This document shows, in pieces, positions 4,755 to 18,505 of a stretch of 64,000 nt of DNA; within the stretch, counting starts at the first letter, position 1, and each line of letters begins with the position of its first letter. The DNA comes from Candidatus Omnitrophota bacterium (GTDB taxonomy: Bacteria; Omnitrophota; Gorgyraeia; JABMRG01). The translations under genes and the position numbers were made by a program. The notes below the pieces were generated by a model. The model was not told the DNA's origin. It did no database searches and saw only the letters and a program-made list of their open reading frames with translations. The stretch lies in assembly GCA_028716165.1 (NCBI GenBank), contig JAQUQI010000001.1, positions 126,538-190,537 on the forward strand, given 5' to 3'.

Positions 4755-5546
4755 TTATTTAACCTTACCCCTTCTTTTTAACGTATCCTCATCGCTTAAG
4801 GAAACTATGTCTTTGCCATCTCTTTCATCAAACACCGAGACTACCTGTATTCCAGCGCAAGCGTCAAGAAAGTTATTTTTTATTTTAAAAATATCTTCTT
4901 TGGATAATGCCCTGACACTGCATTGCCTTAACGGAGTATTGACCTGAACCTCATCCGGTTTGATATAATTCGCCAGATATATTAGTTTATTAACGTCATT
5001 TCTATTGTTGTCTATCAACATCATCTGCAAAGCCAATTTCCCTTTATAACTTTTCCTAAAAACCTTTATTCCTTCTACGATATTTCCAAACTCTACTCCC
5101 TTAACAGGCCTGTTGATACTCTGTAAAGATTCGGGGGAATGGGCATCTAACTTGGCAACAACAAAATCCGCCGAAATAATCTCTTTTCTTACCTCATCCA
5201 TCCCCATCAAAGAACCATTAGTCAAAACCGCAACCGGCTCTTTGCGGATTAACTTTACCGCCTTAATCCCCTCGCCTAAATTGGCCGCCAGGGTAGGCTC
5301 TCCCCTTCCGGAAAAAGTAATATAATCAATATTGGTTTCCGGCAATTTTTGGAGTTCTTCAATAACCGCCTTAACAGGCACATAAACCTTCCGCTCACTT
5401 GCATATTCTTTAACCTGCCCTATTTGGCAATAAAGACAATCAAAATTGCAGATCTTCTCTGCTTGCGAAAGCAAATCTATGCCCAAGGAACTACCCAGCC
5501 GCCAAGACGGAACAGGGCCGTAGATATATTGAAATCCTTTTTTCAT
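4755..5546 (-). CDS. radical SAM protein (COG0731-like; GPVPSWRLG N-terminus)
   Basis: It has the CNFDCLYC CxxxCxxC cluster motif and a glycine-rich SAM region (FSGRGEPTL). Confidence 0.8.
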   Translation of the reverse strand: MKKGFQYIYGPVPSWRLGSSLGIDLLSQAEKICNFDCLYCQIGQVKEYASERKVYVPVKAVIEELQKLPETNIDYITFSGRGEPTLAANLGEGIKAVKLIRKEPVAVLTNGSLMGMDEVRKEIISADFVVAKLDAHSPESLQSINRPVKGVEFGNIVEGIKVFRKSYKGKLALQMMLIDNNRNDVNKLIYLANYIKPDEVQVNTPLRQCSVRALSKEDIFKIKNNFLDACAGIQVVSVFDERDGKDIVSLSDEDTLKRRGKVK

Positions 5547-6382
5547 TTCGTATCTCCGACGAATTCTTTTATTTTTGCCACAATCTTTACGAAAGACTCG
5601 GCTGACTTCGTTTTGTGCCCAAATGAAACAAATGGCGTACCCTTATCGCCAAATTCAACAAATTCCGGTTCAAACGGAACCCTGCCCAAAAACGGCACCT
5701 TCAACTCCTGCGCCGCCTTTTCGCCGCCGCCTTTCTTAAAAATATCTACTTCTCCGTGGCAGTGAGGGCAAACAAACCCGCTCATGTTCTCAATAATACC
5801 TACAACCGGAATCTTTATCTCCTTGGCGAATGATACGCTCTTTCTCGCGTCAAGTATGGCAACATCCTGTGGTGTAGTCACTATAATGATCCCGGTCACA
5901 TTGGGAATTAATTGACAGGCGCTTAACGGTTCATCGCCTGTTCCCGGGGGCGAATCGATAACAAGGTAATCCAGGTCACCCCAATTAACATCAGCTAAAA
6001 ATTGCCTTATAACCGCTGTTTTCAACGGCCCCCGCCAGATAATCGGCTGATCGGAATTGTATCCGGTAAGCGCGACACTCACTGCCTTTAAATTATCCGA
6101 AACCCCCACCGGCTGGATCCCGAATTCAAAATTATAAAGCGATTGTTTTTCTATTCCCAACATCTTAGCAATATTAGGACCGTGAAGATCAATATCTAAA
6201 ATACCCACCAAATTGCCCGAAAGTGACAATGCATACGCAAGATTTACCGCTACCGTCGATTTACCTACTCCGCCTTTACCACTCATAACAATAAGAGGGT
6301 GTTTTACCTTCGCCATCTTTTCCTTAAGGCGCTTCTCCTGTTCTAAATATTCCGCTTCTTTGGTTTCCATATTTCTCTCCAT
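5543..6382 (-). CDS. apbC: Mrp/NBP35-family Fe-S cluster carrier ATPase (ApbC)
   Basis: It has the deviant Walker A GKGGVGKST and the CPHC motif, and is the typical length. Confidence 0.9.
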   Translation of the reverse strand: MERNMETKEAEYLEQEKRLKEKMAKVKHPLIVMSGKGGVGKSTVAVNLAYALSLSGNLVGILDIDLHGPNIAKMLGIEKQSLYNFEFGIQPVGVSDNLKAVSVALTGYNSDQPIIWRGPLKTAVIRQFLADVNWGDLDYLVIDSPPGTGDEPLSACQLIPNVTGIIIVTTPQDVAILDARKSVSFAKEIKIPVVGIIENMSGFVCPHCHGEVDIFKKGGGEKAAQELKVPFLGRVPFEPEFVEFGDKGTPFVSFGHKTKSAESFVKIVAKIKEFVGDTK

Positions 6383-7461: not shown

Positions 7462-8502
7462 CTATACGGACGCGTATTCATTCTTATCTTCAAAAATAGG
7501 CTCTTTCCGGGCATTAACCGGTAATTTACACTCTCTGATAAATACCTTAAAATTCCCCAGATACACAGGCTGTCCGCTTGGTTCATTTGAAGCAAGATAT
7601 TGTTTTTTACTGTCTAAATCATCTATAATTTCCTTGTTACGAGAATACGCTGCAACAAAATCTAACCCCTTTTCGGTTAAAACAAATACCGGTATCTGCC
7701 GGGATAACTGCAATATCGCCAAAGAGCCGATTATCCGGCGCACATCAGAAGAAGCGCAGCTCCACACTAAATCAGCGTGGTCGCGTATGATATTAATCTT
7801 ATCTTTAGTTATCCCGGTCGTGCACACTGCTAAAGTAATTACGCTGACATCATATTCTTTTTCTATCGAACGAATCGCTTTTAAATTCTCCGCGGAATGA
7901 CCGCATACGCTAACCACTATGGTTTTATACCCGGCCCTTACCGCCTCCTGAACCCCGCGCGCCTGATCAATAAGCGCGTTTTCAAAGACTACCTGGCAGC
8001 CAAACGACTTAAGCTTCTTGATTATCCCTTTAACAGGAGAAGTCATCAATAGGCTATTCATCCGGGCGCCAATACCTTGAACAATCTTGGGCTTATCGGT
8101 AATCACCGTGCCTGCCCCGTCGCAGACTACAACCGCCGCGTCAATCACCTTTTTTCTCAATGAAAAACTGATCATTTCTGACGCGCCGTACGGTATCGCG
8201 ACATCATTAAATAAAATCTTTCTCTCATCAGTAAAGAACCCGTAATCTTTAATTTTTGACTCGATCGCCATCTTTATGACATTTTTGATGGCATCTTTAT
8301 CACTGTGACTCTTACCCCTGAAATCCTTATACAAATGTTCCGCTAAGGGACAATAAGTAAGCGTCGGATCAGTAATATTGATTACCTTTCCGTCAGAAAC
8401 ACTCACATACGATGAAAAATATTTTAGAACGTGAATATCCCGCCTATCCATAATATTCCTATATTTAAGATCGCAATTTTTCCCAAATACGGCAAATCTC
8501 AT
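7462..8502 (-). CDS. uncharacterized conserved protein (possibly DUF2099/'methanogenesis marker 8'-like)
   Basis: It is 346 aa, soluble, with CDGAGTVI and VCGHSAEN motifs. The family assignment is a low-confidence recollection. Confidence 0.35.
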   Translation of the reverse strand: MRFAVFGKNCDLKYRNIMDRRDIHVLKYFSSYVSVSDGKVINITDPTLTYCPLAEHLYKDFRGKSHSDKDAIKNVIKMAIESKIKDYGFFTDERKILFNDVAIPYGASEMISFSLRKKVIDAAVVVCDGAGTVITDKPKIVQGIGARMNSLLMTSPVKGIIKKLKSFGCQVVFENALIDQARGVQEAVRAGYKTIVVSVCGHSAENLKAIRSIEKEYDVSVITLAVCTTGITKDKINIIRDHADLVWSCASSDVRRIIGSLAILQLSRQIPVFVLTEKGLDFVAAYSRNKEIIDDLDSKKQYLASNEPSGQPVYLGNFKVFIRECKLPVNARKEPIFEDKNEYASV

Positions 8503-9316
8503 CCTTTACCGCCGAATCCTTATGTTCAATTATTGTCTTACCCTCTACCATAGATTCAACTACCGTTTTATCAAATTTTACCTTGCCGATTAGAGGAATG
8601 TTGTTAGCTTTACAATAGTTCTCTATTTTCTCTGACATCTCCGCGTTTAAATCATATTTATTAATTATCAACTGCGCTGGAACGTTAAAATGTTTCGTTA
8701 CCTCAATAACTCTAGCGGCGTCATGCAATCCGGATAACGTAGGCTCGGTTACCACAACCGCGCAGTCAATTCCTGAAAGCGAAGCGATAACCGGGCACCC
8801 TATGCCCGGAGCGCCGTCAATAATCACCCAGTCGCAATTATTCTTCTCTGCCAATTCTTTCGCCTGTTTCCTCACCAAAGACACTAATTTCCCTGAGTTC
8901 TCCTCTGCAATCCCAAGCTTAGCATGCACCATAGGACCGAAGCGTGTTTCTGAAATAAACCATTCTCCCGCGAGGTTTTCTTTCATCCTGATAGCCCCAA
9001 CCGGGCAAATATGGCTGCAAAAAGCGCATCCTTCGCAAGACACAGGGTCAATAACAAAACTGTCACTTATGGCATTAAAACGGCACACGGCAATACACTT
9101 GCCGCATTGCTGGCAGGTCTTTTTGTCTATCGCGGCGCTTAATCCGCTTCTAAAATCGTGCCGTTCTTTTATCTTGGGCTGTAATAACAAATGCAAATCC
9201 GCCGCGTCCACATCGCAATCAGCCATGACTTTATTTTTCGCCAAAGCGGCGAATGCCCCGGTAATCACGGTCTTGCCCGTTCCGCCCTTTCCACTGATAA
9301 CAACTATTTGTTTCAT
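8465..9316 (-). CDS. MinD/CooC-superfamily P-loop ATPase with an inserted 2x[4Fe-4S] ferredoxin domain
   Basis: It has the deviant Walker A SGKGGTGKT and two CxxCxxCxxxCP motifs (CQQCGKCIAVC, CEGCAFCSHICP) between the ATPase halves. It is a paralog of 12947..13807. Confidence 0.85.
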   Translation of the reverse strand: MKQIVVISGKGGTGKTVITGAFAALAKNKVMADCDVDAADLHLLLQPKIKERHDFRSGLSAAIDKKTCQQCGKCIAVCRFNAISDSFVIDPVSCEGCAFCSHICPVGAIRMKENLAGEWFISETRFGPMVHAKLGIAEENSGKLVSLVRKQAKELAEKNNCDWVIIDGAPGIGCPVIASLSGIDCAVVVTEPTLSGLHDAARVIEVTKHFNVPAQLIINKYDLNAEMSEKIENYCKANNIPLIGKVKFDKTVVESMVEGKTIIEHKDSAVKDEICRIWEKLRS

Positions 9317-9325
9317 AATATTCTC

Positions 9326-10783
9326 CTAAAAATAAATGTCTCTTTCGCCGCTCTTGATTTTTTTATAATATTCAACCAATGTCGGATAAAATAAAGGCAA
9401 CCGCTCTTTGACCTCTTTTATTTCTTTTGCTATTATCTCTTCCCCTGCCTTTTTCGTTGCTGAACTGGCAAAATCATCAAGCCATTCCCGAAATGTCAGG
9501 ATAGCATTCAATTTGCAAAATTGCCCCTCTTTGCCGGAACGTAAAAGCTCCATAATGCGATCCCCCGTTCTGCCGCAACGGTAACCGGCAGTACAAAATG
9601 ATGTGATAAACCCCATGCCTGCCAACTCAGCAATAACTTCATCAAGAGAGCGGGTATCTCCCAATAAAAATTGCTGCCGATTTTCTTCCTGGCTAAGATA
9701 TTTCTTGCTGTATACTCCGATTCCTATACGTGAAGACGCGTCGGTTTGCGTGCACCCAATAGGAATTATTTCATGCCTTATTCCCGGACTCTCCCGGGCA
9801 GTCAAGATCATCCCTGTATAGGGAATAGCAAGCCGGATCACCGCGGCAAGACGCTTAAACTCATCATCTGAAACTTTATATCCAGTTTCTAACACGCGCG
9901 CCGCGTTCATAGCGGGCTCAAGACGGGGAATAGAAACAGTATGCGGCCCGACACCGCTAAAGCGTTTCTCTAACTCACGGGCATGAGATACCAGACCCAT
10001 CACTTCAAATTTCCAATCATACAAACCGAACAGAACACCTATACCCACATCATCAATACCAGCCTCTAATGCCCGGTGCATGCAATAGAGCCGCCAGTGA
10101 TAATTCCCTTTTACCGTTGAAGCCGGATGGTATTTCTGATATGTTCTGCGGTGGTATGTCTCCTGAAAAACTTGATACGTCCCTATACCGGCTTCCTTCA
10201 ATATGGCAAGATCCGCTATTGAAAGCGGAGCGCAATTCACATTGACCCGGCGAATCTGGCCGTATCCATTCTTGGTTTTAACTTTTACTGAATAAACGGC
10301 TTTAAGAGAATCGGCAATGTAATGAACATCTGAATCGGGATGCTCCCCATATACCGTTACTAAGCGCTTATGGCCTATTTCACCAGCCAATACCTCTACC
10401 TCTTGGCTTATCTCATCAAGAGATAATTTTTTCCTTTCTATAGTGTTATCGCTTTTAAACCCGCAATACGCGCAATTATTAATACAAAGATTGCTGCAAT
10501 AAAGCGGGGCGAAAGTTACAATACGGTTATCATATACTTTCTTTTTTACTATTGTTGCCGTCTCAAATATTTCATCCCACAAACTATCATCACGCACGTT
10601 CAATAATGCCGCGGTTTCATTTAAATCAAGTGTTTCTATGGCGAGCGATTTCTGTAAAATATCCCTGATCTTAAACGAATCGGGATCTTGGTTAAGAATC
10701 AGGGCATTTGTAATGGAATCTTCATCAATAAAATCCCCTGTCGCCATATAACGGTTAATTTCTTCTGTTTTAATCATGATCAC
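9326..10783 (-). CDS. radical SAM enzyme, HydG/ThiH (tyrosine-lyase) family, HydG-like
   Basis: It has a CINNCAYCGF radical-SAM motif preceded by an N-terminal extension of about 90 aa like HydG. Length is 485 aa. A C-terminal Cys trio (FCTAGYRC...QFC) fits an auxiliary cluster. Confidence 0.7.
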   Translation of the reverse strand: MIMIKTEEINRYMATGDFIDEDSITNALILNQDPDSFKIRDILQKSLAIETLDLNETAALLNVRDDSLWDEIFETATIVKKKVYDNRIVTFAPLYCSNLCINNCAYCGFKSDNTIERKKLSLDEISQEVEVLAGEIGHKRLVTVYGEHPDSDVHYIADSLKAVYSVKVKTKNGYGQIRRVNVNCAPLSIADLAILKEAGIGTYQVFQETYHRRTYQKYHPASTVKGNYHWRLYCMHRALEAGIDDVGIGVLFGLYDWKFEVMGLVSHARELEKRFSGVGPHTVSIPRLEPAMNAARVLETGYKVSDDEFKRLAAVIRLAIPYTGMILTARESPGIRHEIIPIGCTQTDASSRIGIGVYSKKYLSQEENRQQFLLGDTRSLDEVIAELAGMGFITSFCTAGYRCGRTGDRIMELLRSGKEGQFCKLNAILTFREWLDDFASSATKKAGEEIIAKEIKEVKERLPLFYPTLVEYYKKIKSGERDIYF

Positions 10784-12539: not shown

Positions 12540-12992
12540 CTATTCTATTTTCTCACCCGCGCCAGAACCGCTGTTCGCATCAAAAATTTCTTCTATTTCT
12601 ATTTTGAGCGCTCCCTTAGCGGGATACTTTTCTCCCATCGATTTCATCCATTTCCTGGCGTCTTCATATAGAGGCCCTGAATTTAAATAACTGCACCTAC
12701 CTTTGATTTGATACGACTCCTTGCCGCTTCTCACAAGAATCGCGACTAAAGGATTCTCAAGAATATTCGCTAATGTCTTATTCATATAGTTATCAACAAT
12801 GATGATAGTTTCGTCATCCAGAAGATATTTCGCTCCCGCATTGCAAACATTAGGAACACCGTTTTTTGACGATGTAGCAAGCTGATGAACCGGCTCGTTA
12901 TTAAAAATATCTTTTACTTTCTTAGGTATTTTCATTAAAAGTAGCCTTACTCCTTCTGAGATATTTCTTTTAAAATCTGTTCGTATAAACAC
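12540..12992 (-). CDS. pyridoxamine 5'-phosphate oxidase-like FMN-binding split-barrel protein
   Basis: The VHQLATSSKNGVPNV...IVDNYMNKT pattern is PNPOx-like. The real start is probably the internal Met (MKIPKK), which would remove the overlap with the upstream gene. Confidence 0.55.
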   Translation of the reverse strand: MFIRTDFKRNISEGVRLLLMKIPKKVKDIFNNEPVHQLATSSKNGVPNVCNAGAKYLLDDETIIIVDNYMNKTLANILENPLVAILVRSGKESYQIKGRCSYLNSGPLYEDARKWMKSMGEKYPAKGALKIEIEEIFDANSGSGAGEKIE

Positions 12993-13807
12993 AGAAAATC
13001 TTTCTTATAGTCGGGGAATACCTTAACCATCGGCTCCCCTTTTGAATAAGCCATGGCGATTTCTTTTCTAAAGGGTATTCTCATTAGCACGGGTATATTT
13101 TCTTTCTTACAGTATTCCTCGGTTTTATTATTCCCCAAATCAGCGCGGTTGATTACCACCCCAAACGGGATCTTTAATTTCCTTAGGACCTCTACTGCCA
13201 AAATTAAGTCATTTAAACCAAAAGGCGTTGGCTCGGTGACTAAAACGCAAAAATCGCTTTCCTTAACCGAACCAACCACAGGACAGGATGTTCCGGGAGG
13301 AGCATCGATAATAACTGTTTTTTTAAGATTAATATGCTCTTTGACCTGGCGGATAAGCGGCGGAGACATTGCTTCGCCGATATTAAGTTTCCCGTGTATG
13401 AATTCAATCTCTCCGCAAACGCCAAGTTCCACTACCCCTATTTCTCTATTTACTTCTTTTATTGCCTTTTCCGGGCATAGGGCACTGCAAGCGCCGCAAC
13501 CGTGGCATAAATTAGCAAAAACTAAAGTGCTTCCCTTATTTCCGTTTTGGCCTGGCAAAACCGCGATCGCGTGAAATACGCATACCTTGGCGCATTTTCC
13601 GCAATAAGTGCATTTGGATTCGTCAATCTCCGGAACAGGAATATAGGCTTTTTGCTGTTTTTCGATATTAGACTTTAAGAAAATATGCGCGTTGGGTTCC
13701 TCCACATCGCAATCCAAAAACTGCACGTTATTGATAGATAAAGCCAAATTAACCGCGATCGTCGTCTTGCCTGTCCCGCCTTTTCCACTTGCTATTGAGA
13801 TAATCAT
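12947..13807 (-). CDS. MinD/CooC-superfamily P-loop ATPase with an inserted ferredoxin domain (second copy)
   Basis: It has ASGKGGTGKTT plus the CTYCGKCAKVC and CHGCGACSALCP motifs. Confidence 0.85.
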   Translation of the reverse strand: MIISIASGKGGTGKTTIAVNLALSINNVQFLDCDVEEPNAHIFLKSNIEKQQKAYIPVPEIDESKCTYCGKCAKVCVFHAIAVLPGQNGNKGSTLVFANLCHGCGACSALCPEKAIKEVNREIGVVELGVCGEIEFIHGKLNIGEAMSPPLIRQVKEHINLKKTVIIDAPPGTSCPVVGSVKESDFCVLVTEPTPFGLNDLILAVEVLRKLKIPFGVVINRADLGNNKTEEYCKKENIPVLMRIPFRKEIAMAYSKGEPMVKVFPDYKKDFLCLYEQILKEISQKE

Positions 13808-13810
13808 ATA

Positions 13811-14419
13811 TTATGTACTCCGCTCGGCTATAAGCACGCTTTGCACGATGCTAGCGCATTCATTTATAGTAAAACCTTTATCAATGAAATATTTTTTTGC
13901 TTCTTCAAGGCGATTCCTAAAATAATCATGTGTCCTGCCTTCATTCGTGTGGCAGGCATTAATAATTTCTAATCCTTTATCGCTAAAATCGCTTAAGACC
14001 ACCTTACCGCCATGGCGTAATAAACGGGTTATTTCGTCTAATACCGCCAACGGTCTTTCAAGATGATGAAATACATTAATAGAAAAAATAATATCAAAAC
14101 TGTGATCTAAAAAACCCAAGCGTTCAGCGTCCTCAATTTTAAATATTGCCTGTTTTGCAAGGCCAAAATAACACAGATTTAGCATAGCGATCTCTTGCTC
14201 ATCCTTAGAGATATCTATGCTGGTGAAAGTAAATCCGCGCTTTGCCAAAGCGAGAGCAAAATGACCTTTACCTGTTCCGATTTCAAGGATTTGCCCAGAA
14301 ATAGGCAGGGATTTATCAAGGATAAAATCTCTTTCCTTCTCTATGTCGTAGCCAAAGCTTCGGTAATAGTTTACTCTCTCTAAATACCTTTTATGATTTA
14401 CTATAACTTCCTTATCCAA
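13811..14419 (-). CDS. class I SAM-dependent methyltransferase
   Basis: ILEIGTGKGHFALALAKRG is motif I. Length is 202 aa. Confidence 0.8.
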   Translation of the reverse strand: MDKEVIVNHKRYLERVNYYRSFGYDIEKERDFILDKSLPISGQILEIGTGKGHFALALAKRGFTFTSIDISKDEQEIAMLNLCYFGLAKQAIFKIEDAERLGFLDHSFDIIFSINVFHHLERPLAVLDEITRLLRHGGKVVLSDFSDKGLEIINACHTNEGRTHDYFRNRLEEAKKYFIDKGFTINECASIVQSVLIAERST

Positions 14420-14428
14420 ATTATTCCC

Positions 14429-14596
14429 TTATTCTCTTCTCATCTTGGTCCCGCATTTAGGACAATTCACATCGTAACAAGGAGCCCCTTGTTGATGCGG
14501 CACTTTTTCTCCACATTTGGGACATATACAATTCCCTCCAGGACCAGCTCCCGACTGATTACCTCCCATCCTGCCTCTGCCTTGGCCATTTGGCAT
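14429..14596 (-). CDS. small Gly-rich zinc-ribbon protein (55 aa; DUF5320-related C-terminal module)
   Basis: My own translation gives MPNGQGRGRMGGNQSGAGPGGNCICPKCGEKVPHQQGAPCYDVNCPKCGTKMRRE. It is below the 60-aa cutoff of the track. It is a near-duplicate of the C-terminal half of the next ORF. Confidence 0.5.
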   Translation of the reverse strand: MPNGQGRGRMGGNQSGAGPGGNCICPKCGEKVPHQQGAPCYDVNCPKCGTKMRRE

Positions 14597-14617
14597 GATA
14601 ACCCTCCTTTGCTTTTA

Positions 14618-14833
14618 CTATTCTCGTACCATTCTTATGCCGCATTTAGGGCAGCTCATCGAGCCACAAGGTGTGCCTGCTTGATGAATAACTTTAGTCC
14701 CGCAGCTTGGACAAACACAATTACCTCCCGGCCCCGCGTTGCCTCGTCTACCTCTGCCCATACCCATTCCCCTGCCCATCCCTGATCCTTGGCCCAACGG
14801 CCCAGTTCCATCTCGTCCTGGCATAATAATCAC
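14618..14833 (-). CDS. DUF5320-like protein variant with a C-terminal zinc ribbon
   Basis: The N-terminus MPGRDGTGPLGQGSGMGRGMGMGRG matches the DUF5320 signature. The C-terminus GPGGNCVCPSCG...CPKCG replaces the usual coiled coil. A GGAGGTG ribosome-binding site is present. Confidence 0.6.
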   Translation of the reverse strand: MIIMPGRDGTGPLGQGSGMGRGMGMGRGRRGNAGPGGNCVCPSCGTKVIHQAGTPCGSMSCPKCGIRMVRE

Positions 14834-14836
14834 CTC

Positions 14837-15088
14837 CTAATCGTGCTCTTCAAACATTTTATCCTGCGTTGGATCCTTCTTTCTGATCCACTCAATCAAC
14901 ATTGCCGCGTGCTCTTTTTCTTCGTTCATATTGTGCGTAAGAAGCTTTTTCAACGACTCATCAGCAGTAGCGTCTATACGTTCCTGATAAAAATCAACCG
15001 CCTCCAATTCCTCGCGTAAAGATTTTCTTGCTCTTTCTAAATCAACATGCTTTGGATCCATTTTTTCCAACGGTTCAAAGAATGGCAT
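14837..15088 (-). CDS. encapsulated-ferritin-like (EncFtn family) four-helix ferroxidase-like protein, no targeting peptide
   Basis: EELEAVDFYQERIDATADESLKKLLTHNMNEEKEHAAMLIEWIRK aligns closely with the EncFtn core, including the EExxH motif. Length is 83 aa. Confidence 0.65.
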   Translation of the reverse strand: MPFFEPLEKMDPKHVDLERARKSLREELEAVDFYQERIDATADESLKKLLTHNMNEEKEHAAMLIEWIRKKDPTQDKMFEEHD

Positions 15089-15105: not shown

Positions 15106-16284
15106 TTATAACCGTGCTGCTTGTCTTTTAATTTCAGCGGCCTTATCCGTTAATTCCCAACTAAAATCCGCATCGTTACGGCCAAAATGGCCATAACAAG
15201 CGGTTTTTCTGTATATCGGCCGTAGTAATTTCAGGGAATCAATGATGCCTCTCGGCGTAAGCTTAAAATTCTCTCGAATAAGCTTAACCAATTTCTCATC
15301 GGGCAACTTTCCTGTACCATAAGTCTCCACGTATACAGATAACGGTTCGGCGTATCCTATAACATAAGCCAACTGGACAAGAAATTTATCAGCTAAGCCA
15401 GCCGCAACCATATTTTTGGCGATATAACGACACATATACGCCGCAGAACGGTCAACTTTTGTTGGGTCTTTCCCGGAAAATGCCCCTCCGCCATGCGCAA
15501 TGCTTCCGCCATAGGTATCTACGACAATCTTTCTTCCGGTCATACCAGTATCGGATTGCGGGCCACCGATTAAAAACTTACCCGTTTGATTAACATAATA
15601 TTTTGTATCCTTATCTATAAACTGCTCTAAAACCGGCTTAGCCACAATATCAATAAGCTCTTTACGTGCTTTCGGGGTAATATTTTTACCTGTTTTATCT
15701 AAAATCTTATCCGTATGCTGGCACGCAAGCACAACCGCATCTACACGATTAGGCTTGCCATCATGATATTCCACTGTAACTTGTGATTTACAATCGGGCC
15801 CTAAATATTTTAAAGTATCGGCTCTACGCACATCCGCCATGAGCTTTACCAATTTATGGGCGAGAGTTATCGGAAGCGGCATTAACTCTTTAGTCTCATT
15901 GCAAGCGTAGCCGAACATAATTCCCTGATCGCCCGCGCCGCCTGCATCAACGCCCTGGGCAATATCTGGAGATTGACTATTAATAGAATTTATAATCGCG
16001 CACGTTTCATAATCAAACCCGTATTTAGGATGCGTATATCCGATATTTTTGATAATCTCACGGGCAAGCTTCTGAATATTGATATATGTAGATGTCGTAA
16101 TTTCTCCGCCAACAACTAAAAGCCCCATTGTAACGTACGTCTCGCACGCAACTCTGCTTCTATGTTTATTGCGATCGAGCTTTAAAACCTCATCCAATAC
16201 TCCGTCTGATATTTGATCACACAACTTATCCGGATGCCCTTCTCCAACTGACTCGGAAGAAAAAAAATACTTACGTTTATTCAT
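15106..16284 (-). CDS. metK: S-adenosylmethionine synthase
   Basis: [29 protein letters not shown] and DTYGG motifs are all present. Length is 392 aa. Confidence 0.95.
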
Positions 16285-16292
16285 GAATTCTC

Positions 16293-16460
16293 CTAAATTG
16301 AAATCGCTTCATTTGGGCATTGATTCACACAAACTCCACACTCAACGCAATCATCGCTGATTACGGCTTTTTCTTTTTCTATCTTTATCGCATTAACAGG
16401 ACAAATATCCTTACACGTGCCGCAACCATTGCATTTCTTTTTATCTACTTTCGCAGCCAT
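16293..16460 (-). CDS. 2x[4Fe-4S] ferredoxin (55 aa)
   Basis: My own translation gives [55 protein letters not shown]. There is a GAGGAG ribosome-binding site 7 nt upstream. It is below the track cutoff. Confidence 0.75.
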
Positions 16461-16472
16461 AACCGCTCCTCT

Positions 16473-16850
16473 TTATTTCTTCTTACCCGGCATTCCGGCA
16501 TGCGAACTGACACTAGGGCCAGAAACCGCTTTGTATTCTCCTTTTTTATATTTCTCGACTGCTTCACTAACCGTACCCGAGGCTCCGGTAAATATCTCTA
16601 TTCCTGCCGCCTGCAATGTCTGAAAAGCGTTAGGCCCGACATTCCCGGTTACCACAGCTTTAATCTTTTTAGAAGCGACAAACTGCGCCGATTGAATACC
16701 CGCGCCGCCCATTGACTCAATATTAGGATTTTCGATCTCTTCAAATTCTAAAGTATCCGTATCAATAATAATAAAGTGCTGACACCTGCCAAAACGAGGA
16801 TCTACCTTAGAATCCAAACTGCCGCCCTCTGAAGTCACGCATATTCTCAT
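16473..16850 (-). CDS. dinitrogenase FeMo-cofactor biosynthesis domain protein (NifB/NifX/NafY-like)
   Basis: MRICVTSEGGSLDSKVDPRFGRCQHFIIID...AVVTGNVGPNAFQTLQAAGIEIF matches the typical PF02579 pattern. Confidence 0.8.
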   Translation of the reverse strand: MRICVTSEGGSLDSKVDPRFGRCQHFIIIDTDTLEFEEIENPNIESMGGAGIQSAQFVASKKIKAVVTGNVGPNAFQTLQAAGIEIFTGASGTVSEAVEKYKKGEYKAVSGPSVSSHAGMPGKKK

Positions 16851-16864
16851 ATATTTTCGCCTCC

Positions 16865-17263
16865 TTAATGGTCACAATCTTCTTTATGTGGATGGTCACA
16901 TTCATCTTTTTCTAAACCGTACCCCTTACCCGCTCCGGGCTTGCAAAGACTCTCGCCGCTTTCCAGCGTTCCTTTTTTCAGCTGTCCGATTACTTCGTCG
17001 ATTTTTACGCTTATCCCTACGATAGTCTTAATGCTGTATTCCTCAAAAAGTGACGTTGCCCGCGCTCCCATGCCACCGGCAATAATACAATTTACACCCT
17101 TTTTATGCAAAAACTCCGGAATCGCACCCGGCTGATGTCCGGGATTCGCTACTCCTGTCCTTTTCGTTACTTTGCCATTTTCGATGTCAACAAGGGTAAA
17201 AGTTGGACATCTACCAAAATGGGCAGACACAAATTCTCCATCTGTAGATATGGCTGCACGCAT
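16865..17263 (-). CDS. dinitrogenase FeMo-cofactor biosynthesis domain protein (NifX-like) with a His/Cys-rich tail
   Basis: AHFGRCPTFTLVDIENGKV...CIIAGGMGARATSLF is the family pattern. The C-terminus is CDHPHKEDCDH. Confidence 0.8.
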   Translation of the reverse strand: MRAAISTDGEFVSAHFGRCPTFTLVDIENGKVTKRTGVANPGHQPGAIPEFLHKKGVNCIIAGGMGARATSLFEEYSIKTIVGISVKIDEVIGQLKKGTLESGESLCKPGAGKGYGLEKDECDHPHKEDCDH

Positions 17264-17336: not shown

Positions 17337-17897
17337 TTACTCACTCTTCTCTGCCTGATTTTTCTCAAGCATCTCAATGCGGCCTTGAATATCCTCAAGC
17401 TGTTTTTTTAAGAAATCAGCTTCACCTTTTAGGATATCCGCCTCCTGCTTAGGTTTCATTTCAGGCGCATAAGGATACGTCCCGCCAAAAGCAGGAAATC
17501 CCATAGATGCTCTCTGCCAGCCGGAAAGACCGGTTGTGTAAAACCAATTTCTCCGGCCTCTGCCGCCGCCTCGGCCAAAAAACCCTCTGCCCATGCCAAC
17601 ATAACCTCCGCCGGACACAGGATTCATATAACCGGCCATAGGATAACCCGCACAGAGACCAGCCCCTCTTCCTGTCATCGGTCCTAATCCCATAGGTCCA
17701 GTTCCATCTCCTCTAGGCATAACAAACACCCCCTTTCTTAAACTACTTTTGGATTCTTTATCACCAGAATCTATTTTAGCTACGCAAAAACCCATTCCCC
17801 TGCCGGTAAACGACCCTGCTCCCCTGGGTCCTGTCCCATCAAATCCTGGCATAATCATCACCCCCCCCCCATTAATGGAATTGATAATCATTCTCAT
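17337..17897 (-). CDS. DUF5320-family protein (two Gly-rich MPG(F/R)DGTGP modules plus a C-terminal coiled coil)
   Basis: It has MPGFDGTGPRGAGSFTGRGMG and MPRGDGTGPMGLGPMTGRGAGLCAGY, followed by LKGEADFLKKQLEDIQGRIEMLEK. The real start is probably ATG 17850-17852 or 17856-17858, just downstream of a G10 tract. Confidence 0.7.
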   Translation of the reverse strand: MRMIINSINGGGVMIMPGFDGTGPRGAGSFTGRGMGFCVAKIDSGDKESKSSLRKGVFVMPRGDGTGPMGLGPMTGRGAGLCAGYPMAGYMNPVSGGGYVGMGRGFFGRGGGRGRRNWFYTTGLSGWQRASMGFPAFGGTYPYAPEMKPKQEADILKGEADFLKKQLEDIQGRIEMLEKNQAEKSE

Positions 17898-17919: not shown

Positions 17920-18390
17920 CTACCTCTTAATACAGGTATTGCACAAACCGTAAAACTGGATCAAATGATTCGTGATCTTAAAATCATATTTTTGTGACAG
18001 GCCTTTTTCTGTTTGATTAAGCAACTCAACCTCCTCATCGATAAAATCGGTATAATTGATAACACGGTTGCATTGCGTGCATATCAAATGATGATGGTGA
18101 TGACTGCCCTTAGGCCCCTCTGCTAACTCATATCGCGCTCTTTTATCGCCAAAATCGAACTTAAAAACCAGGCCTAATCCAGCTAAAACCTCCAATGTCC
18201 TATATATCGTAGCCAATCCAATGCTGGGACATTTAGGATGCGCTTCCATATAAATATCTTCCGCGCTTAAATGTTTATCTGATTTGGAAAGCACTGCCAA
18301 TATAGCTTCCCTGCCGGGCGTTATTCTATAACCACACCCTCTAAATTTGCCATGCCACCATGGCGCACCAGCACAATTTCTTCTTGGCAT
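17920..18390 (-). CDS. fur: Fur-family metal-responsive transcriptional regulator
   Basis: It has a winged-helix N-terminus, an HHHHH run and C-terminal CxxC...CxxC pairs (CTQC, CNTC). Confidence 0.85.
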   Translation of the reverse strand: MPRRNCAGAPWWHGKFRGCGYRITPGREAILAVLSKSDKHLSAEDIYMEAHPKCPSIGLATIYRTLEVLAGLGLVFKFDFGDKRARYELAEGPKGSHHHHHLICTQCNRVINYTDFIDEEVELLNQTEKGLSQKYDFKITNHLIQFYGLCNTCIKR

Positions 18391-18402
18391 ATTATATCCC
18401 TT

Positions 18403-18426
18403 GATAGTTGATAATGATTACCATTT
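18403..18426 (-). promoter_or_regulatory. Fur-box-like site immediately upstream of fur
   Basis: GATAGTTGATAATGATTACCATTT contains AATGGTAATCATTATC on the coding strand, one mismatch from the core of the 19-bp Fur consensus GATAATGATAATCATTATC. Confidence 0.45.
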
Positions 18427-18505
18427 ACAATAGTCTATTCTTCTTTGTGTTTTTTGTCAAGCATTTTTTTAACGATACCGTATTTATGCGCGTGAAAACT
18501 TTTTA

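Follow-up and report, generated by a model that had tools for sequence, protein, structure and literature searches.

What is made by two adjacent mini-genes lying inside an operon headed by a Fur-family regulator was the question raised by the window analysed here, a 64 kb stretch of a Candidatus Omnitrophota metagenome-assembled genome (MAG). Both genes, termed ORF1 and ORF2 (open reading frames 1 and 2), are on the minus strand, as are all the window features given below, and they encode members of an unnamed mini-protein family for which we coined the label RIB. From the conserved ligands of a small ribbon domain, and from the neighbours and domain fusions of the family, we propose that RIB may be a cationic metal- or Fe-S-binding partner of NifX-like and MinD-ferredoxin (MinD-Fd) proteins in Fur-controlled iron or Fe-S handling; to this proposal, taken as a whole, we give slightly more credence than doubt.

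ORF1 (14618-14824, stop codon included) encoded 68 aa from an ATG, comprising an N-terminal motif, a Gly/Arg linker and a Cys6His ribbon, and ORF2 (14429-14596, stop codon included) encoded 55 aa with a short Gly/Arg linker and the ribbon and without the N-motif. ORF1 had a Shine-Dalgarno (SD) sequence, AGGAGG (14833-14838), which was kept in the related contigs L082 and L085 and overlapped the TAG stop codon of the upstream EncFtn-like gene, suggesting translational coupling of the two genes. ORF2 had its own SD sequence, AAGGAGGG (14602-14609), in the 21-nt spacer 3' of ORF1. When the ORFs were compared with those of L082 and L085, the proportion of synonymous differences (pS) was 0.57-0.61 and that of nonsynonymous differences (pN) about 0.07 for both, and the dN/dS ratio was 0.06 for ORF1 and 0.07-0.08 for ORF2, as expected under strong purifying selection. 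The homology searches gave 180 homologues for ORF1 and 195 for ORF2, and 55-aa orthologues of the latter were found in the tandem of L082-L085. Taken together, these data indicate that ORF1 and ORF2 are genuine, separately translated paralogous genes at the position given in the original prediction, and the check it had named, conservation and a coding signal of the 55-aa ORF in relatives, came out in its favour. The same prediction had given the first ORF 71 aa. That length did not hold, because its GTG start (14833) sits within the AGGAGG of ORF1 and all the homologues begin at a MPGRDGTGP-type start, so that translation begins at ATG 14824 and gives 68 aa opening with MPGRDGTGP.

On a contig identical to the window sequence (L001), the gene caller of the Joint Genome Institute (JGI) had placed ORFs of 51 aa and 40 aa in another frame over the two mini-genes (L001 3642-3797 and 3864-3986, corresponding to 14656-14811 and 14467-14589 of the window), and according to this annotation ORF1 and ORF2 would be chance frames in Gly-codon-rich DNA and the JGI ORFs the true genes. 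The pS and pN values in the proposed frame speak against this; moreover, pS was lower than pN in the two shifted frames in which the comparison was repeated for ORF2, hundreds of homologues carry an invariant Cys pattern and the SD sites are at the right distance. We give a chance origin of the frames a negligible probability, and the non-coding reading was refuted by the frame comparison. The exact ORF1 and ORF2 proteins were not found in a collection of 15 billion proteins, which fits with the wrong-frame call of the JGI. The miscall is a reminder that frame choice may fail in Gly-rich mini-genes. A G-quadruplex-type motif, GGGATGGGCAGGGGAATGGGTATGGG (14757-14782, sense strand), one of two in the window, was located in the Gly-linker codons of ORF1.

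The ribbon was defined from an alignment of 104 homologues and from a residue count over 226 distinct sequences of the family. It spans about 35 residues at the C-terminus of both proteins (residues 34-68 of ORF1, 14621-14725; residues 21-55 of ORF2, 14432-14536), with the spacing C-x-C-x2-C-x5-H-x5-C-x4-C-x2-C and, in ORF1 numbering, the ligand pattern C36-x-C38-P-x-C41-G-x4-H47-x5-C53-x4-C58-P-K-C61-G. The cysteines C36, C38, C41, C58 and C61 were present in 226/226 sequences and H47 and C53 in 224/226, with fixed spacing; the corresponding invariant columns of ORF2 are C23, C25, C28, H34, C40, C45 and C48. AlphaFold2 modelled the ribbon with a predicted local distance difference test (pLDDT) score of 78-89 in the two proteins (82-89 in ORF2, which had the strand pattern of ORF1), with short strands flanking both knuckles, and gave the N-terminal part a score of about 50. 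The alignment of the two ribbons recommended earlier showed the same seven ligands and 25/38 identical residues, and the C-terminal residues of ORF2 (about 43) were 86% identical to those of P0054, a full-length member of another subfamily. ORF2 therefore belongs to another subtype, as a paralogue truncated at its N-terminus, and is no fresh copy of ORF1. ORF2 was also more than the ribbon half that had been described, since it retains the initial MP and the proximal Gly/Arg linker (GRGRMGGNQSGAGPGGNC) and, compared with the full form, is without residues 3-22.

No Pfam or NCBIfam model covered the RIB family when ORF1 and ORF2 were scored, and its members are named 'hypothetical' or occasionally 'DUF5320' in the databases. 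The Rubredoxin profile of Pfam gave no match at E <= 1, the NCBIfam rubrerythrin-like domain reached 12.6 bits against a cut-off of 32, and the HVO_2753 and RpoP equivalogs of NCBIfam reached 13.7 bits against 80 and 15.2 against 63. FmdB/Zn_ribbon_8, whose members start with MPxYEYxCxxCG, scored on ORF2 13 bits against 34.4 (PF09723) and 10 against 31.3 (TIGR02605), both below threshold, and PF02579 (Nitro_FeMo-Co), the domain of two upstream genes, matched neither ORF1 nor ORF2. RIB resembles the classical zinc ribbons and rubredoxin knuckles (RpoP/Rpb12, HVO_2753, LysW and rubredoxin) in its small size, its two CPxCG knuckles and, as predicted by the models, its short beta-hairpins and topology. 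It differs from them in having no significant match, three extra ligands (C36, H47 and C53), a fixed 17-residue C41-C58 spacing and a specific operon context. RIB would be an undescribed zinc-ribbon-like variant with a distinctive ligand set.

The N-terminal module of ORF1 (residues 1-22, MPGRDGTGPLGQGSGMGRGMGM, 14759-14824) is common to RIB and DUF5320 (PF17253), an uncharacterised family. When the RIB alignment was compared with an alignment of DUF5320 proteins from these operons, hhalign gave a probability of 96.5% and an E value of 9.6e-10 over columns 1-22 of both, so the DUF5320-type signature claimed for ORF1 was upheld. Family membership was not: in the hidden Markov model search for PF17253 that had been proposed as a check, ORF1 reached 18.9 bits (E 0.0036, residues 1-29), below the gathering threshold of 27, ORF2, from which the N-motif is deleted, gave no match, and a precomputed PF17253 match was present in a minority of RIB homologues. 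Both kinds of protein carry MPxxDGTGPxGxGPxTGRGxG at the extreme N-terminus, are encoded in the same operon and are Gly/Arg-rich and cationic. They differ in that DUF5320 continues with a GxGYC Cys, a Gly/Arg/aromatic region and a C-terminal coiled coil, none of which was seen in RIB proteins compared with 76 DUF5320 ORFs of related loci, and RIB has the Cys6His ribbon in their place. RIB thus has one 22-residue module in common with DUF5320 without being a member of it. The idea of three variants of one family therefore stands as regards modularity, with many more architectures than three, and falls as regards membership; the statement that the ribbon had replaced the coiled coil describes the layout and not a demonstrated evolutionary event.

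The DUF5320 protein of the window was recognised by PF17253 in two stretches (123.7 bits, E 7.5e-36, for the ORF 17337-17897) and had, as predicted, two N-motif modules and a coiled coil, with a Gly/Arg/aromatic region. For its 186-aa ORF, the most probable start is ATG 17852 (17337-17852), which gives 171 aa opening with MPGFDGTGP. The second module, MPRGDGTGP, begins at residue 60 of the ORF with an SD-like sequence, AAGGGGGTG, in frame before it; the conserved residues (K/R)(E/G)V(F/I)xM resemble a translated SD, and the NCBI annotates the gene only as a 127-aa form. Two DUF5320 isoforms are possible from this arrangement. In a literature search on DUF5320 the term appeared only in unrelated work.

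Between the N-module and the ribbon of ORF1, residues 23-33 (14726-14758) form the rest of a cationic Gly/Arg linker that is predicted to be disordered (pLDDT about 50 over residues 1-30). The net charge was +7 with 28% Gly in ORF1 and +5 with 22% Gly in ORF2, and all the RIB members examined (74/74) had a net charge of +5 to +9, with isoelectric points (pI) of 9.1-9.8.

When one genome per species was scanned with the ribbon pattern, RIB was confirmed in at least 468 species genomes, with carriers that include Omnitrophota, Dehalococcoidia, Planctomycetota, Latescibacterota, Bacillota, Actinomycetota, KSB1, Spirochaetota and one Aenigmatarchaeote. Searching 1.84 billion cluster representatives with the RIB profile gave 2269 matches at E <= 1e-3 and 685 at E <= 1e-10. 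The gene neighbourhoods were analysed in the best 80 of the at least 468 loci, all of them from MAGs, and 78 of these were used for the synteny counts, which are lower bounds because contig ends intervene. A NifX-like gene lay immediately upstream on the same strand in 50/78 loci and a MinD-Fd ATPase gene immediately downstream in 32/78. Within 5 kb and on the same strand, MinD-Fd was found in 67/78 loci, NifX-like genes in at least 65/78, DUF5320 in 55/78 and Fur in 25/78. In almost every case RIB is placed between NifX-like and MinD-Fd genes, and frequently it follows a Fur gene. A different lineage carried on a 3.09-Mb contig (L086, 4530-8458) the order NifX, MinD-Fd, MinD-Fd, NifX, RIB, DtxR-type iron repressor and three DUF5320 genes, that is, a second kind of iron regulator inside a RIB-type cluster and directly beside RIB. 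The conserved core across phyla is NifX-like, RIB, MinD-Fd and DUF5320, under iron regulators.

RIB was single-copy in 78/80 loci, the other two giving no motif match, and two RIB genes side by side were found in 0/80 genome loci, even when the relaxed pattern was included. The ORF1-ORF2 pair was kept with the same spacing in the close relatives L082-L085 (four contigs, 70 aa and 55 aa), and the tandem was confined to these and L001; it is lineage-specific. Elsewhere, RIB proteins without the N-motif occurred as the only copy (L072, L074 and L075; P0152 and P0188). As a side observation, one or two FmdB-type zinc-ribbon genes (MPIYEYxCxxCG...CPxCG), some with a TCCGRxERCxxPPCS tail, recurred in Dehalococcoidia RIB loci (L003, L015, L019, L025, L032, L040, L043, L048, L054 and others).

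These counts also bear on the idea that the mini-ORFs are precursors of ribosomally synthesised and post-translationally modified peptides (RiPPs), with a conserved leader and a Cys-rich core processed by the methyltransferase and radical S-adenosylmethionine (SAM) enzymes of the operon. The small products, the tandem of paralogues, the methyltransferase gene directly downstream and the radical SAM genes of the cluster are what such a pathway would contain. The Cys-rich part is, however, the most conserved one and is predicted to fold, RIB is usually single-copy, a methyltransferase was within 5 kb in only 20/78 loci (3' of the RIB genes in 23/80), neither a protease nor an exporter was seen beside the family, and the same domain is embedded in proteins of 600-1430 aa. 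A RiPP function is very improbable, and we rejected it on account of the conserved core with its predicted fold, the missing constant link to a maturase and the occurrence of the ribbon inside large proteins.

In the window, the operon reads Fur, DUF5320, two NifX-like genes, ferredoxin, MetK, EncFtn-like, ORF1, ORF2, methyltransferase and MinD-Fd, followed by further genes that include a second MinD-Fd ATPase, radical SAM enzymes and a Mrp/NBP35 ATPase. The Fur-family regulator at its head (17920-18390, PF01475, E 7.4e-33) was preceded by a Fur-box-like site, GTAAATGGTAATCATTATC (18410-18428), which agreed with the consensus in 16/19 positions and was the only match in the 64 kb, 0.03 being expected by chance. 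This site lies just downstream of a promoter-like sequence, TTGACA-17-TAGACT (18432-18460), between it and the fur start codon, and its core was kept in L001, L082 and L083. The extension MPRRNCAGAPWWHGKFRGCGYR at the N-terminus of this Fur was considered as a further copy of the DUF5320/RIB N-motif, an idea that hhalign did not support (probability 2.5%) and that was rejected as evidence. By eye, the operon-leading Fur proteins of Omnitrophota (residues 1-22 in the window) have an extension MPRGxCxGxxWWHGKFRGCGYR, relatives in L013, L016 and L031 are suggestive, and in some relatives the extension reads MPRGNGTGP, like the DUF5320/RIB motif.

The two NifX-like proteins (16865-17263, E 1.5e-20; 16473-16850, E 1.7e-26) consist of the Nitro_FeMo-Co domain alone; the earlier description of NifB-like and MinD-Fd neighbours was accordingly right for MinD-Fd and has to be amended for NifB. 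They are followed by a 55-aa 2x[4Fe-4S] ferredoxin (16293-16460, from the ORF list and JGI annotation), the SAM synthetase MetK (15106-16284) and an 83-aa EncFtn-like ferritin-like protein (14837-15088, PF22277, E 2.5e-31). The latter matched positions 1-80 of 114 of TIGR04535, below the cut-off, and so is without the C-terminal third of this encapsulin-cargo model; no encapsulin shell gene was seen among the annotated operon genes, the rest of the window not having been scanned for one. EncFtn adjoined RIB in 9/80 loci, and MetK was found in 2/80 and is inserted in the operon only in the lineage of the window. The EncFtn-like, MetK and DUF5320 proteins were exact matches of the NCBI entries MDD5503820, MDD5503821 and MDD5503825. 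Profile searches identified, directly 3' of ORF2, a class I SAM-dependent methyltransferase (13811-14419) and, beyond it, a MinD/ParA-type ATPase with an inserted 2x[4Fe-4S] ferredoxin domain, similar to Orp3/Orp4 (12947-13807), a radical SAM and BATS enzyme (9326-10783), the second MinD-Fd ATPase (8465-9316) and the Mrp/NBP35-type P-loop ATPase (5543-6382, PF10609, E 1.2e-94).

With this gene content, the operon might instead build a complex metallocluster of the NifB-co-like or orange-protein Mo/Cu type, for which RIB would serve as a scaffold or chaperone. The radical SAM and BATS enzyme, a second radical SAM enzyme, MetK and the methyltransferase would suit such a pathway, and NifX-like proteins carry FeMo-co precursors, as Orp8 carries a Mo-Cu cluster. 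The radical SAM enzymes, MetK and the methyltransferase are nevertheless outside the conserved core, as the counts of the last two show, and what remains is the NifX-like, RIB, MinD-Fd and DUF5320 set under iron regulators, which makes a cluster-building operon rather improbable.

The set of genes found here is of the same kind as in the anaerobe-specific orp (orange protein) operons, which have two MinD-Fd ATPases (Orp3/4-like), NifX-like proteins (Orp5/8-like) and a Mrp/NBP35 ATPase; the window has two MinD-Fd, two NifX-like and the Mrp-type genes, all on the minus strand. Orp operons are under the control of sigma-54 and OrpR, whereas this operon has a Fur gene and a Fur-box-like site; of the genes annotated between 3849 and 19307, none resembling OrpR was noticed. 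A small Cys-rich protein of the ORP operon (Dde_3197/Orp7) is reportedly an Fe-S protein, and the FmdB-type ribbon of some RIB loci may be its counterpart. The Orp proteins of Desulfovibrio form an Fe-S protein complex (PMC6345978).

A second relevant system is the NifX-family protein IssA of P. furiosus, which stores Fe-S as thioferrate and whose cationic Gly-rich tail has been proposed to bind thioferrate (PMC5524996). IssA joins an IPR003731 domain to a cationic, Gly-rich, disordered tail, and the window encodes NifX-like proteins and cationic Gly/Arg segments side by side, ORF1 and ORF2 being comparable to that tail in charge, Gly content and pLDDT (about 50). In Dehalococcoidia and some other lineages the two parts were fused in an IssA-like manner, as NifX-like proteins encoded directly upstream of RIB were joined to (GMGR)n repeats and a DUF5320-like coiled coil, an IssA/'IssX'-like architecture (L014 4042-4647, L025 7368-7976, L038 7160-7762, L043 7121-7738 and others). 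RIB itself differs from IssA in having no IPR003731 domain, in its Cys-rich folded domain, which is missing in IssA, and in its apparent regulation by Fur.

The ribbon also occurred in larger proteins. At least two ribbon stretches were found in about 42 of the top 150 representatives. P0265 has in a single chain a full RIB unit followed by a unit without the N-motif, which would make it the fused counterpart of ORF1 and ORF2, and other two-ribbon chains were P0267, P0268, P0269 and P0272. In P0283 a DUF5320-type N-module is joined to RIB. In P0262 (220 aa), three ribbons without Gly/Arg linkers come after a predicted signal peptide, suggesting that the domain may also work outside the cytoplasm. 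In the Aenigmatarchaeota MAG (L035 373-1404), linker and ribbon form a C-terminal extension of a cation diffusion facilitator (CDF) transporter (Cation_efflux, E 5.5e-42, with ZT_dimer), whose gene is followed by NifX-like and MinD-Fd genes. The best-scoring representatives of the RIB profile were large proteins (600-1430 aa) in which two to five ribbons showed the strict seven-ligand signature and were combined with Nitro_FeMo-Co, PDZ, rhodanese, trypsin/PDZ (MamE-like protease) and 'FeS' domains.

The fusions help to judge whether RIB could be a nucleic-acid-binding zinc ribbon, with an Arg-Gly-Gly (RGG)-like tail and a structural ribbon, acting as a regulator or RNA chaperone of the operon. 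The best matches, weak as they were, included RNA polymerase subunit P, ribosomal zinc ribbons and HVO_2753-type proteins, the pI is high and the JGI labels one fused homologue as a 'predicted RNA-binding Zn-ribbon protein'. All such matches were far below threshold, the extra invariant C36, H47 and C53 would be left unexplained, and the partners (metal transporter, NifX-like, rhodanese and PDZ, some with a signal peptide or membrane anchor) include none related to nucleic acids. We consider a nucleic-acid-binding function improbable.

Three of the large proteins, P0259, P0263 and P0274, were encoded in magnetosome gene clusters (3/3 of those whose context was examined; L088 8001-12293, L089 6883-8685 and L090 8001-10943). 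All of them also encode MamI, LemA/MamQ, a pair of CDF transporters, trypsin-like proteases and an actin-like protein, and 2/3 have Feo genes. In the databases the ribbon proteins are named only 'PDZ domain-containing protein', as is the one from a Candidatus Riflebacteria MAG, or are unnamed. A literature search found no paper on a zinc-ribbon domain in magnetosome proteins, and the presence of a RIB-type ribbon in them is previously unremarked. RIB-type ribbons thus occur in proteins that resemble FmpA/FmpB and MamP/MamE in being multidomain and in combining PDZ and NifX-like domains with a small metal or redox module. NifX-like domains are part of both FmpA and FmpB in D. magneticus RS-1, and mutations predicted to remove these domains lead to fewer, smaller and misplaced magnetite crystals (PMC4287615, PMC12748827). 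FmpB of RS-1 is described with a magnetochrome haem domain and no mention of a ribbon, whereas ORF1 and ORF2 are free-standing cytoplasmic proteins of a non-magnetosome operon.

Magnetochrome haem domains play a redox role in MamP, MamE and FmpB, and by the same token RIB could be a rubredoxin-like redox centre, a single Fe(Cys)4 or small Fe-S site passing electrons to or from the NifX-like and MinD-Fd machinery. The CPxCG knuckles are a hallmark of rubredoxin, and rubredoxin and desulforedoxin were among the nearest structures; the ribbons of the magnetosome-cluster proteins are paired with PDZ and NifX-like domains, the domain types with which RS-1 FmpB pairs magnetochrome, and the operon encodes a ferredoxin and ferredoxin-domain ATPases. 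On the other side, there was no match to the Rubredoxin profile of Pfam, the ribbon is without the aromatic core of rubredoxin, seven conserved ligands exceed what a rubredoxin site needs, and a cationic disordered linker with a docking motif is atypical of electron carriers. An electron-carrier role for RIB is, on balance, unlikely.

The proposal we favour remains that RIB is a metal- or Fe-S-binding partner of the NifX-like and MinD-Fd proteins. Metal or cluster binding, as the original prediction had suggested for modular peptides of this kind, is a reasonable reading of the sequences because of the seven near-invariant ligands and the domain fusions, and the modularity itself was borne out. 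The knuckle cysteines C38, C41, C58 and C61 would hold one metal ion, and a second site is envisaged because seven ligands exceed the need of a structural Zn(Cys)4; C36, H47 and C53 may make up this site, with an incomplete coordination that would suit Fe or a small Fe-S unit bound transiently or as a bridge. RIB would act as the soluble partner of the upstream NifX-like (IssA/Orp/Fmp-type) proteins and the downstream MinD-Fd ATPases, and the three together would make up a Fur-controlled system storing, trafficking or assembling iron or Fe-S species in anaerobes. The cationic linker could interact electrostatically with acidic partners or anionic Fe-S species, the N-module may serve DUF5320 and RIB proteins alike as a docking peptide, and the ORF1-ORF2 pair would represent the unfused form of the two-ribbon proteins, with one docking motif and two ribbons.

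Several observations weigh against this proposal. One ORF2 orthologue (P0149) has Tyr in place of H47, so that this ligand is not always indispensable, and the N-module was missing in several lineages (L072, L074, L075 and L035). The closest solved folds (Rpb12, aIF2-gamma, rubredoxin, a desulforedoxin domain and the HypA knuckles) gave no significant similarity (best Foldseek E 0.31), nor did a sequence search of the PDB, whose best match was the zinc-binding domain of human CLPX (E 0.04), and a purely structural Zn(Cys)4 ribbon may also be compatible with the ribbon models. A Gly/Arg-rich tail on a zinc ribbon is also a typical feature of nucleic-acid-binding proteins. The operon's radical SAM enzymes, MetK and methyltransferase would be better suited to cofactor synthesis than to storage or trafficking, and no magnetosome genes were found in the window, the link to magnetosomes resting on homologous domains of other organisms.

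More tentatively, and with a probability that we rate as low, the ribbon could be a dedicated module for Fe or Fe-S nucleation and hand-over that works with NifX-like domains in anaerobes at large; in magnetotactic bacteria it would be built into FmpB-, MamP- and MamE-like magnetosome proteins, and in anaerobes that are not magnetotactic it would be a free mini-protein scaffolding, together with the DUF5320 proteins that have the same docking peptide, a Fur-controlled cytoplasmic deposit or condensate of the IssA/thioferrate type. If true, an ancestral NifX-plus-ribbon unit would underlie both ordinary Fe-S storage and magnetosome biomineralisation. IssA-type Fe-S storage is known from one archaeon, and it is only of late that NifX-like domains in magnetosome proteins were linked with the nucleation of crystals. 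What the orp-type NifX-like/MinD-ferredoxin clusters do, in which RIB is a fixed component, has been a question since 2011, and with its 55-68 residues and seven ligands RIB would offer a small, tractable handle on the metal species of these systems.

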